Shown here one piece after another: positions 1-5,545 of a DNA stretch of 5,545 bases. The stretch comes from a virus. Lineage: Duplodnaviria; Heunggongvirae; Uroviricota; Caudoviricetes. Numbering within the stretch: position 1 is the first letter of the stretch; every line of letters begins with the position of its first letter. The position numbers and the translations under genes are program-made. The notes beneath the pieces are model-generated. The model was not told the origin of the DNA. It worked only from the letters and a program-made list of their open reading frames with translations, and did no database searches. The stretch is from the IMG/VR virus record IMGVR_UViG_2529292726_000016. One strand, 5' to 3'.

Positions 1-141
1 CAGCGAAGGCAGTAACAAGCGCGACTTGATGTCGCACTGAAGGGTGCGGCCAGTATAGTTGGCGCGAGTCGGCAAAACTAGTTGACGTCTAATATCGGCA
101 ACTTTGGCGGCTTCCTTTCCATTAACAAACTTTCGCAGTAA
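1..141 (+). other. Possible 3' remnant of the upstream tail gene (gpL-like tail tip protein); not open in any forward frame across this stretch
   Basis: Frame 1 has TAA at 13..15 and TAG at 79..81, then a 19-codon open stretch (LTSNIGNFGGFLSINKLSQ) ending at TAA 139..141, 5 nt before the K ATG. Frame 2 stops at 38..40, 56..58 and 83..85; frame 3 stops at 27..29 and 90..92. The terminal peptide resembles what I recall of the lambda gpL C-terminus, and frame 3 encodes CRTEGCGQ (gpL-type proteins have C-terminal cysteines), but I cannot verify either. Confidence 0.3.
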
Positions 142-146
142 ATCCC

Positions 147-890
147 ATGACACAGACAGAATCAGCGATTCTGGCGCACGCCCGGCGATGTGCGCCAGCG
201 GAGTCGTGCGGCTTCGTGGTAAGCACGCCGGAGGGGGAAAGATATTTCCCCTGCGTGAATATCTCCGGTGAGCCGGAGGCGTATTTCCGTATGTCGCCGG
301 AAGACTGGCTGCAGGCAGAAATGCAGGGTGAGATTGTGGCGCTGGTCCACAGCCACCCCGGTGGTCTGCCCTGGCTGAGTGAGGCCGACCGGCGGCTGCA
401 GGTGCAGAGTGATTTGCCGTGGTGGCTGGTCTGCCGGGGGGCGATTCACAAGTTCCGCTGTGTGCCGCATCTTACCGGGCGGTGCTTTGAGCACGGGGTG
501 ACGGACTGTTACACGCTGTTCCGGGATGCTTATCATCTGGCGGGGATTGAGATGCCGGATTTTCATCGCGAGGATGACTGGTGGCGTCACGGTCAGAATC
601 TCTATCTGGATAATCTGGAGGCCACGGGGCTGTATCAGGTGCCGTTGTCAGCAGCACAGCCGGGCGATGTGCTGCTGTGCTGTTTTGGTTCATCGGTGCC
701 GAATCATGCCGCCATTTACTGTGGTGATGGCGAGCTGCTGCACCATATTCCTGAACAACTGAGCAAACGAGAGAGGTACACCGACAAATGGCAGCGACGC
801 ACACACTCCCTCTGGCGTCACCGGGCATGGCGCGCATCTGCCTTTACGGGGATTTACAACGATTTGGTCGCCGCATCGACCTTCGTGTGA
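147..890 (+). CDS. K: Tail tip assembly protein K (JAB/MPN metallopeptidase plus NlpC/P60 cysteine peptidase), long form
   Basis: ORF 147..890, 247 aa, TGA stop at 888..890. Complete JAMM signature H68-x-H70-x7-S78-x2-D81 (HSHPGGLPWLSEAD, nt 348..389) with a candidate upstream Glu (E19). Downstream is an NlpC/P60-like region with candidate catalytic Cys121 (GVTDCYTLF) and His residues (PNHAAIYCGDGELLHH). Start is uncertain: ATG 147 has no clear SD but lies 5 nt after a TAA; internal ATG 291 (MSPEDW) has GGAGG at 275..279 and would give the 199-aa form annotated in lambda, which lacks the N-terminal part of the JAB fold. Confidence 0.9.
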   Translation: MTQTESAILAHARRCAPAESCGFVVSTPEGERYFPCVNISGEPEAYFRMSPEDWLQAEMQGEIVALVHSHPGGLPWLSEADRRLQVQSDLPWWLVCRGAIHKFRCVPHLTGRCFEHGVTDCYTLFRDAYHLAGIEMPDFHREDDWWRHGQNLYLDNLEATGLYQVPLSAAQPGDVLLCCFGSSVPNHAAIYCGDGELLHHIPEQLSKRERYTDKWQRRTHSLWRHRAWRASAFTGIYNDLVAASTFV

Positions 891-1459
891 AAACGGGGGC
901 TGAAGCCATCCGGGCACTGGCCACACAGCTCCCGGCGTTTCGTCAGAAACTGAGCGACGGCTGGTATCAGGTACGGATTGCCGGGCGGGACGTCAGCACG
1001 TCCGGGTTAACGGCGCAGTTACATGAGACTCTGCCTGATGGCGCTGTGATTCATATTGTTCCCAGAGTCGCCGGGGCCAAGTCAGGGGGCGTATTCCAGA
1101 TTGTCCTGGGGGCTGCCGCCATTGCCGGATCATTCTTTACCGCCGGAGCCACCCTTGCAGCATGGGGGGCAGCCATTGGGGCCGGTGGTATGACCGGCAT
1201 CCTGTTTTCTCTCGGTGCCAGTATGGTGCTCGGTGGTGTGGCGCAGATGCTGGCACCGAAAGCCAGAACTCCCCGTACACAGACAACGGATAACGGCAAA
1301 CAGAACACCTATTTCTCCTCCCTGGATAACATGGTTGCCCAGAGCAATGTTCTGCCCGTTCTGTACGGTGAAATGCGCGTGGGGTCACGGGTGGTTTCTC
1401 AGGAGATCAGCACGGCAGACGAAGGGGACGGTGGTCAGGTTGTGGTGATTGGTCGCTGA
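788..1459 (+). CDS. I: Tail assembly protein I (N-terminal ubiquitin-like beta-grasp domain ending in Gly-Gly, then hydrophobic Gly/Ala-rich segment)
   Basis: ORF 788..1459, 223 aa, TGA at 1457..1459, the same length as lambda gpI. RBS-like GAGAGG at 771..776. Residues 14-101 end in ...HIVPRVAGAKSGG (Gly-Gly codons at 1085..1090). Next comes a roughly 55-residue hydrophobic stretch with repeated GxxxG/AxxxG spacing (VFQIVLGAAAIAGSFFTAGATLAAWGAAIGAGGMTGILFSLGASMVLGG), then a polar C-terminal tail. The 5' end overlaps the K 3' end by 103 nt in a different frame. Confidence 0.9.
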   Translation: MAATHTLPLASPGMARICLYGDLQRFGRRIDLRVKTGAEAIRALATQLPAFRQKLSDGWYQVRIAGRDVSTSGLTAQLHETLPDGAVIHIVPRVAGAKSGGVFQIVLGAAAIAGSFFTAGATLAAWGAAIGAGGMTGILFSLGASMVLGGVAQMLAPKARTPRTQTTDNGKQNTYFSSLDNMVAQSNVLPVLYGEMRVGSRVVSQEISTADEGDGGQVVVIGR

Positions 1460-1477
1460 TGCAAAATGTTTTATGTG

Positions 1478-1500
1478 AAACCGCCTGCGGGCGGTTTTGT
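1478..1500 (+). promoter_or_regulatory. Stem-loop in the I-J intergenic region (weak terminator or attenuator-like, or an mRNA structural element)
   Basis: Perfect inverted repeat AAACCGCC (1478..1485) / GGCGGTTT (1490..1497) around loop TGCG, followed by T-rich sequence (ttttgtcgttt). It lies between the I stop (1459) and the J RBS (GGAG 1508..1511, ATG 1520). Confidence 0.4.
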
Positions 1501-1519
1501 CGTTTATGGAGCGTGAGGA

Positions 1520-2515
1520 ATGGGTAAAGGCAGCAGTAAGGGGCATACCCCGCGCGAAGCGAAGGACAACCTGAAGTCCACGCAGTTGCTGAGTGTGATT
1601 GATGCCATCAGCGAAGGGCCGATTGAAGGTCCGGTGGATGGATTAAAAAGCGTGCTGCTGAACAGTACGCCAGTGCTGGACAGTGAGGGGAATACCAATA
1701 TCTCCGGCGTCACGGTGGTGTTCCGGGCAGGTGAGCAGGAGCAGACACCGCCGGAGGGATTTGAATCCTCCGGCTCCGAGACGGTGCTGGGTACGGAAGT
1801 GAAGTACGACACGCCGATTACCCGGACCATCACGTCTGCAAACATCGACCGTCTGCGCTTTACCTTCGGTGTGCAGGCACTGGTGGAAACCACCTCAAAG
1901 GGGGACCGGAATCCGTCGGAAGTCCGCCTGCTGGTTCAGATACAGCGTAACGGTGGCTGGGTGACGGAAAAAGACATCACCATTAAAGGCAAAACCACCT
2001 CGCAGTATCTGGCCTCGGTGGTGGTGGATAACCTGCCGCCGCGCCCGTTCAACATCCGGATGCGCAGGATGACGCCGGACAGCACCACAGACCAGCTGCA
2101 GAACAAAACGCTCTGGTCGTCATACACCGAAATCATCGATGTGAAACAGTGCTACCCGAACACGGCACTGGTCGGCGTGCAGGTGGACTCGGAGCAGTTC
2201 GGCAGCCAGCAGGTGAGCCGTAATTATCATCTTCGCGGGCGCATTCTGCAGGTGCCGTCGAACTATAACCCGCAGACGCGGCAATACAGCGGTATCTGGG
2301 ACGGAACGTTTAAGCCGGCATACAGCAACAACCCGGCCTGGTGTCTGTGGGATATGCTGACCCACCCGCGCTACGGCATGGGGAAACGTCTTGGTGCGGC
2401 GGATGTGGATAAATGGGCGCTGTATGTCATCGGCCAGTACTGCGACCAGTCAGTGCCGGACGGTTTTGGCGGCACGGAGCCGCGCATCACCTGTAATGCC
2501 TGGCTGACCACGTAG
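1520..2515 (+). CDS. J: J N-terminal fragment (331 aa) ending at the in-frame amber codon
   Basis: ORF from the track, MGKGSSKGHTPREAKDNLKSTQLLSVIDAISEGPIEGP..., the conserved N-terminus of lambda-family J proteins. Terminates at TAG 2513..2515. Confidence 0.8.
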   Translation: MGKGSSKGHTPREAKDNLKSTQLLSVIDAISEGPIEGPVDGLKSVLLNSTPVLDSEGNTNISGVTVVFRAGEQEQTPPEGFESSGSETVLGTEVKYDTPITRTITSANIDRLRFTFGVQALVETTSKGDRNPSEVRLLVQIQRNGGWVTEKDITIKGKTTSQYLASVVVDNLPPRPFNIRMRRMTPDSTTDQLQNKTLWSSYTEIIDVKQCYPNTALVGVQVDSEQFGSQQVSRNYHLRGRILQVPSNYNPQTRQYSGIWDGTFKPAYSNNPAWCLWDMLTHPRYGMGKRLGAADVDKWALYVIGQYCDQSVPDGFGGTEPRITCNAWLTT

Positions 2516-4918
<2,403 letters not shown>

Positions 4919-4935
4919 ATTTTATAACCCAGAAC

Positions 4936-4963
4936 GGGCGTCAGAAATGACGCCTTTTTTATT
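4936..4963 (+). terminator. Rho-independent terminator between J and lom
   Basis: Perfect 7-bp GC-rich stem GGCGTCA (4937..4943) / TGACGCC (4948..4954) with GAAA tetraloop, immediately followed by TTTTTTATT (4955..4963). It sits 18 nt downstream of the J stop. Confidence 0.75.
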
Positions 4964-4984
4964 GCAGAAAAGCGAGAGGTAATT

Positions 4985-5545
4985 ATGCGTAAACTTTATG
5001 CCGCCATTTTGTCCGCAGCCATTTGTCTGGCCGTATCCGGTGCGCCTGCATGGGCGTCTGAACATCAGTCCACGCTGAGCGCTGGGTATCTTCATGCCCG
5101 GACGAACGTTCCCGGCAGTGATGATCTGAACGGGATTAACGTGAAATACCGTTATGAGTTTACGGACACACTGGGGCTGGTTACGTCATTCAGCTATGCA
5201 GGAGACAAGAATCGCCAGCTGACCCATTACAGCGATACCCGCTGGCATGAAGATTCCGTGCGTAACCGCTGGTTCAGCGTGATGGCGGGGCCGTCTGTAC
5301 GCGTGAATGAATGGTTCAGCGCGTATGCGATGGCAGGCGTGGCTTACAGCCGTGTGTCGACTTTCTCCGGGGATTATCTCCGCGTAACTGACAACAAGGG
5401 GAAAACGCACGATGTGCTGACCGGAAGTGATGACGGTCGCCACAGCAACACGTCTCTGGCGTGGGGGGCTGGCGTGCAGTTTAACCCGACCGAATCCGTG
5501 GCCATTGATATTGCTTATGAAGGCTCCGGCAGTGGCGACTGGCGC
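4985..5545 (+). CDS. lom: Lom outer-membrane protein (Ail/Lom/PagC/OmpX family beta-barrel), 5' partial, runs off the window end
   Basis: ATG at 4985 with SD GAGAGG (4973..4978). The frame is open to the window end (187 codons): MRKLYAAILSAAICLAVSGAPAWA|SEHQSTLSAGYLHARTNVPGSDDLNGINVKYRYEFTDTLGLVTSFSYAGDKNRQL.... It has a typical Sec signal peptide with an AWA-S cleavage site and alternating aromatic/hydrophobic beta-strand patterns, and matches lambda Lom as I recall it. It is absent from the ORF track only because no stop falls inside the window. Confidence 0.92.
   Translation, partial: MRKLYAAILSAAICLAVSGAPAWASEHQSTLSAGYLHARTNVPGSDDLNGINVKYRYEFTDTLGLVTSFSYAGDKNRQLTHYSDTRWHEDSVRNRWFSVMAGPSVRVNEWFSAYAMAGVAYSRVSTFSGDYLRVTDNKGKTHDVLTGSDDGRHSNTSLAWGAGVQFNPTESVAIDIAYEGSGSGDWR

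Follow-up and report, generated by a model that had tools for sequence, protein, structure and literature searches.

The 5,545-nt stretch of DNA analysed here, referred to throughout as the window, carries what would be a full-length lambda-type tail tip gene J were it not for one in-frame TAG codon, and this raises the question whether the codon is a lesion in a decaying prophage, a conditional allele of a working phage, the boundary within a gene that functions in two pieces, or an error of sequencing. The features of the window are as follows.

1-94, plus strand: right end of ISEc10 (IS21 family), with the istB stop at 27-29 and the terminal repeat ending in CGTCTAATA at 94.
95-141, plus strand: 3' end of L, its last 47 nt, ending in VGNFGGFLSINKLSQ and the stop codon; the rest of L is replaced by the IS or separated by it.
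147-890, plus strand: K, a C40/JAB peptidase of 247 aa, intact; the other TAG carriers differ from it by 18 SNPs within 153-728.
788-1459, plus strand: I, 223 aa from ATG 788 as in lambda, intact.
1520-2515, plus strand: N-terminal fragment of J, 331 codons and the amber codon; N-terminal hub region with the FNIII-A domain (residues 86-207).
2513-2515, plus strand: amber TAG; CAG (Gln332) in lambda and in the nearest relative.
2516-4918, plus strand: in-frame rest of J, codons 333-1132, with PF13550, two Ig/FNIII domains, the tail-tip fibre and the C-terminal receptor-binding domain.
4985-5545, plus strand: lom (Ail/Lom outer-membrane protein), 187 of 199 codons, ended by the contig edge and not by mutation.

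The two open reading frames called in J, 1520..2515 (331 aa, starting with ATG) and 2531..4918 (795 aa, starting with GTG), lie in one frame (2531-1520 = 1011 = 337 x 3), and translation of 1520-4918 yields 1132 codons and a terminal stop, with the sole internal stop at codon 332. Positions 2504-2533 read acc acg TAG cgt aag gcg tgg gat GTG, with the TAG at 2513-2515. The J frame holds 2 stops, as against 55 and 69 in the other two plus-strand frames, and therefore represents a single coding frame broken once. The translation and the frame check agree with the first-pass annotation, which had described two open reading frames in one frame as a J of 1132 codons, the length of lambda J, split by one TAG. 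A functional lambda-type J has an uninterrupted frame; with an internal TAG at codon 332, the gene reads as a J pseudogene by standard annotation rules.

The minus strand of J also holds a 510-aa open frame (2612-4144) in phase with the J codons, the equivalent in lambda J being 564 aa long. It is probably not a gene, long antisense frames being expected wherever TTA, CTA and TCA are little used as sense codons. In gene I, automated calls begin at GTG 887 (887-1459, 190 aa). The upstream ATG 788 has a strong Shine-Dalgarno sequence (GAGAGAGG, −9.3 kcal/mol) and gives a product of 223 aa and a 103-nt overlap with K, both as in lambda.

From base 95 onward the window matches lambdoid phages and prophages at identities of up to 97-99.6%, in the gene order L(3' end)-K-I-J-lom, so that J stands in the tail-tip block where a lambda-type J is found. 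Lambda J (NC_001416, 15505-18903) likewise has 1132 codons and, in the alignment, CAG at codon 332, the glutamine codon that the earlier annotation had given for this position; its context is AYLTTQRKAWDV, where the window reads AWLTT*RKAWDV. The read-through product aligns with lambda gpJ (NP_040600; PDB 8IYK, 8XCG) without gaps and collinearly from end to end, 987 of 1133 positions being identical, and its N-terminal half aligns residue by residue to the solved gpJ chains across 1-331. Identity per 100-residue block is 97-99% over residues 1-600 and 90-99% over 601-1000. The differences from lambda are the TAG at codon 332 and the last ~130 residues, the receptor-binding domain, which are only ~41% identical. 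The two fragments cover positions 1-331 and 339-1163 of the NCBIfam profile for lambda_TipJ (NF049904); neither reaches the curated cutoff of 1950 bits by itself (scores of 751 and 1556), and their sum of 2307 exceeds it. All six Pfam families of lambda J are found above their cutoffs in the read-through protein.

Residues 86-207: FNIII-A_GpJ.
Residues 330-496: Phage-tail_3 (PF13550).
Residues 610-714: Ig_J.
Residues 716-818: Ig_J_second.
Residues 845-972: Phage_Tail_Tip.
Residues 1008-1132: Ig_GpJ_C.

Together, these matches indicate that the read-through gene belongs to the lambda TipJ family on each sequence criterion tested, save that of an uninterrupted frame, and that the Pfam architecture is the one seen in lambda. 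Published structures of the lambda tail tip (PMC10721106, PMC11101478) divide gpJ into an N-terminal hub, made up of the HDII-insertion (with the FNIII-A insert at residues 72-215), HDII, HDIII and HDIV (with an insert at 483-569), and, C-terminal to it, a pair of FNIII domains, the shaft, which is helical and spans ~809-861, the central fibre and, last, the domain that binds the receptor. From this layout, the 331-residue product would hold part of the hub only and would lack tube closure, fibre and receptor binding. The amber codon (2507-2515, J residues 330-332) lies two residues past the N-terminal edge of Phage-tail_3 (330-496), a domain boundary as defined by the profile.

The receptor-binding domain (4520-4915, J residues ~1000-1132) is ~41% identical to those of lambda and 434 alike. 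Several Stx1a- and Stx2a-converting phages have a far more similar domain, with 98-100% identity, and some of the Stx1a-converting ones match it at 100%. The receptor of this J is therefore probably one other than LamB.

An exact-sequence look-up of the 331-aa product retrieved three contigs.

APXK01000138.1: contig of E. coli 2875150, the same 5,545 bp as the window, with the two J products ENB14513.1 and ENB14514.1.
CP025886.1 (locus L003): complete chromosome of 4,998,347 bp, with the same 331-aa and 795-aa products.
JAAPHT010000059.1 (locus L004): contig of 28.6 kb, with the same 331-aa and 795-aa products.

The context of the TAG is identical in all three carriers (ACCACGTAGCGT / TGGCTGACCACGTAGCGTAAGGCGTGG), and window positions 729-5545 (4,817 bp) are 100% identical to both CP025886.1 and JAAPHT010000059.1, the whole of gene I included. 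The flanks are different in each. The window is separated from both other carriers by 18 SNPs and one indel, confined to 140-728, and has an IS where they have L; L003 and L004 are in turn unalike upstream of mid-L. The three are therefore not copies of one data set, and the T at 2513 appears to be real, inherited or exchanged among strains. Furthermore, the locus in CP025886.1 is integrated, lying inside the 4,998,347-bp chromosome, and the carrier is thus a chromosomal prophage, as defective prophages are. A literature search on the accessions, the strain number and named J amber alleles found nothing useful.

The closest sequence among 5,426 complete E. coli genomes is a prophage of strain 510016 (NZ_CP025851.1, 3,278,757-3,284,206), at a locus adjoining prfC. 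It has CAG at codon 332 and an annotated full-length gpJ of 1132 aa, so that lambda and the nearest prophage, the two J genes that the first-pass annotation had proposed to consult, carry the same codon. Over 729-5545 its sole mismatch to the window is at 2513, C against T, and one C-to-T change, as suggested earlier, explains the stop. The comparison of CP025886.1 with 510016 gives the same C/T difference as the one mismatch in 19,088 aligned bases. The 510016 prophage differs from the TAG carriers in its CAG, and it too is defective: beside an IS100-type element, it has lost the head genes together with the upstream portion of H.

Searches for the T allele point the same way. A 32-mer around the codon occurs with C at 174 places in 153 complete E. 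coli genomes, which served as the positive control, and with T at none of the 174 comparable places. Upstream of a common downstream 28-mer, ACGTAG was found at 0 of 1,622 places in 1,205 of the 5,426 genomes; the full 61-mer with T gave no BLAST match in complete E. coli genomes, and exact and degenerate TAG-bearing patterns gave none in GTDB species representatives, JGI metagenomes or IMG/VR. From these comparisons C is clearly the ancestral state and, T being rare and the alleles differing by 1 base in 19,088, the TAG is therefore a derived, evolutionarily recent transition from CAG. Close homologs that are naturally split at 2513, which had been named as the observation that would speak against a lesion, were not encountered (0 of 174 and 0 of 1,622 places; CAG in 510016). 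A conserved split or programmed readthrough was likewise ruled out, with no TAG seen in the 61-mer, 32-mer and offset 32-mer BLAST searches or in the pattern scans. Deamination of 5-methylcytosine at a Dcm hotspot (CCAGG) was also rejected as the source of the change: the context, ACGCAGCG, is not CCWGG.

The amber codon is not the only damage in the carrier prophages. ISEc10 copies in 591 E. coli genomes share 98-99% identity with bases 1-100 of the window, and an independent copy in lom of strain Ecol_316 stops at the same nucleotide as window base 94. Homology to L of lambda, 510016 and CP025886.1 begins precisely at base 95, which places the IS/L junction at 94/95; L thus appears to be cut off by the IS from 15 or more of its terminal codons. 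The tape-measure gene H of CP025886.1 is split into three by IS21-type and IS66 elements, and 510016 has the same insertions in H and additionally lacks everything upstream of the first IS. In JAAPHT010000059.1 no lesion is visible in genes E to I, the 10 kb that precede J, and gene lengths there are lambda-like (among others, E 341 aa, V 246, H 853, M 109 and L 232; the lesion check covered 14.8 kb); in this prophage the J amber could be the sole defect. Lesions in virion-essential genes are therefore present throughout, as the J amber in 3 of 3 carriers, an IS in L of the window and IS in H of CP025886.1, and damage beyond the amber is demonstrable, at the level of sequence, in two of the three (the window and CP025886.1), so that the description of an already dead prophage would not extend to every carrier. 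The absence of other lesions in K, I, J and lom had been taken by the first-pass annotation as a sign that the event is recent; the recency stands, but its premise does not, as the IS junction at 94/95 is a second lesion. More generally, the edges of short draft contigs can conceal adjoining IS damage.

The ISEc10 copy in the Ecol_316 strain lies in lom of a related prophage (L007, 551-3566), so that this element strikes the tail/lom block recurrently. Elsewhere in these prophages, downstream of the side-tail-fibre genes, a reverse-transcriptase gene adjoins a SLATT-domain gene interrupted by IS1 (L001 21297-23973, L003 17873-20549), and the pair looks like a damaged defence-type cargo module.

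The distribution of the two alleles indicates that the lesion has moved. Between the window on one side and 510016 and the two other TAG carriers on the other, all 18 SNPs and the single indel are confined to 140-728, which takes in the spacer between L and K and the beginning of K; from 729 on there is identity, and this implies a recombination breakpoint inside K. TAG occurs with a broken H in CP025886.1, with a different, intact H in JAAPHT010000059.1 and, in the window, with another K 5' region and an IS in L; the broken H of CP025886.1 recurs in 510016 beside CAG. A single mutation followed by vertical descent is thus insufficient to explain these combinations, which call for recombination or gene conversion between lambdoid prophages. 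Such exchange is plausible because these genomes hold several J copies; 510016 alone has six places matching the window. The amber may have arisen in an already broken prophage and later been copied into others, or it may have arisen in an intact phage with 510016 subsequently restored to CAG, and the data are ambiguous between the two scenarios. In either, the amber is a point lesion that travels in a block of 4.8 kb, the rest of which all carriers share unchanged.

The reading we favour, with a probability of roughly 0.88, is that of a CAG-to-TAG nonsense mutation in a lambdoid prophage, as one step of ordinary prophage decay and no designed feature. A spontaneous C-to-T transition in a lambdoid prophage of a clinical E. 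coli of the enterotoxigenic type would have made an amber codon, TAG, of the CAG (Gln) at J codon 332. RF1 would terminate translation at the UAG and release residues 1-331, the N-terminal hub/FNIII-A piece. The remainder of the hub, where PF13550 lies, would be missing, as would both FNIII/Ig domains, the helical shaft, the central fibre and the domain that binds the receptor. This fragment is expected to be unable to nucleate a tail tip or to bind a receptor, and induced cells would yield heads without functional tails. Judged by lambda genetics and structure, the prophage presumably cannot make adsorbing tails, because the gpJ trimer is the base of the lambda tail tip and its receptor binder. 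The first-pass annotation had offered a recent inactivating lesion in a prophage as one of three explanations, and this one is borne out by the near-identity of the alleles, which are the same but for the one base over 4.8 kb (window) and 19 kb (CP025886.1), and by the location in a chromosomal prophage.

Of the other explanations, a functional conditional allele fares best and is still very unlikely. Here the phage would go on propagating because the UAG is read through by an amber-suppressor tRNA of its hosts or, at a low level, by near-cognate tRNA-Gln, and each virion needs no more than three gpJ chains. The structural genes upstream of J do seem intact in JAAPHT010000059.1, the allele has, judging by its three contexts, survived at least two recombination or IS events, and readthrough by tRNA-Gln would presumably yield the wild-type protein. 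Indeed, a suppressible Jam-type allele had been among the earlier proposals, and it holds in the trivial sense that any UAG is suppressible and that here, as in an amber phage mutant, a UAG lies in an essential gene. It does not hold for the rest of the phage, which comes from a clinical E. coli genome and is otherwise broken in the window (L, by ISEc10) and in CP025886.1 (H, by two IS); since these IS lesions lie in essential tail genes, suppression alone could not rescue the two carriers. Amber suppressors are rare in natural E. coli isolates, and a UAG followed by C is reportedly a poor context for suppression. Furthermore, ARAGORN found no tRNA gene in the four loci scanned, and so no phage-borne suppressor tRNA, and the absence of the allele from phage records, IMG/VR and the 5,426 complete genomes fits a spreading phage poorly.

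A J that works in two pieces is very unlikely. Translation would stop at the UAG and restart at GTG 2531, and the 331-aa and 795-aa products would assemble non-covalently. This GTG, 15 nt downstream, is the earliest possible restart past the TAG and is preceded by a weak Shine-Dalgarno match (AAGG), with a predicted pairing to the 16S 3' end of −4.7 kcal/mol, compared with −6.8 at the start of J itself and −9.3 at the ATG of I (788). The protein would be broken where PF13550 (330-496) begins, and both pieces are called by automated annotation. However, the AAGG..GTG is the conserved RKAWDV coding sequence of all intact J genes and not an evolved start, no other J copy checked is split at this site, and residues 332-337 would be absent from the product. 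With zero other substitutions, selection on the pieces is not measurable. Either route, tRNA-Gln readthrough or restart at GTG 2531, might in principle make the amber non-lethal in a prophage of the JAAPHT010000059.1 type through infectivity at low efficiency, which we regard as highly improbable; if true, a leaky or two-piece J of this kind would be a natural 'leaky' host-range gene.

Least credible is a sequencing or assembly error over a true C and an intact J, an option that had also been raised at first and that a one-base difference in otherwise identical sequence from a short draft contig of 2013 might suggest, but that is effectively rejected by the T and the 331-aa product being common to three assemblies of separate accessions, one of them a complete chromosome, with differing flanks.

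Other J alleles show breaks of their own. A different 795-aa product (P0019), 94% identical and with the same GTG start, is encoded on 10 contigs, including a 4.86-Mb chromosome, and suggests that at least one further J allele may be interrupted within ~25 codons upstream of that GTG; for this allele, no TAG in the ACG-TAG context was found within the complete-genome set. The isolated phage PhiR29_2 (L002, 2426-5822) has J as two overlapping coding sequences, 2426-4417 and 4395-5822, a split of the frameshift type. It was considered as an instance of the same split and excluded, its break lying elsewhere, around J nucleotide 1970.

For annotation, the consequence of the favoured reading, nonsense mutation in a decaying prophage, is that ENB14513.1 ('putative host specificity protein J') and ENB14514.1 ('fibronectin type-III family protein') would be treated as the halves of one J pseudogene, and the prophage would not be counted as intact or inducible. 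The locus also offers an example of how a lesion can be dated, the amber and the intact allele differing by 1 base in 19 kb. The kind of event is already known and has little import past correct annotation.

Two known systems frame the case. The classical lambda J amber (sus) mutants belong to Campbell's suppressor-sensitive collection. Like them, the window has a UAG inside J, and tail-less, non-adsorbing particles would be expected in a non-suppressing host. Those mutants, however, were selected in the laboratory on suppressor hosts in a phage that was otherwise intact, whereas the carriers here are chromosomal prophages in clinical isolates, with IS damage in two of three. The closer likeness is to the cryptic prophages Rac, DLP12 and Qin of K-12, defective lambdoid prophages with damaged late genes that have kept lom-type and other cargo. 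In those as in the present carriers, chromosomal remnants bear IS insertions, deletions and late-gene point mutations; the difference is one of stage, as decay here appears to be early, with K, I, lom and, bar one base, J still intact.
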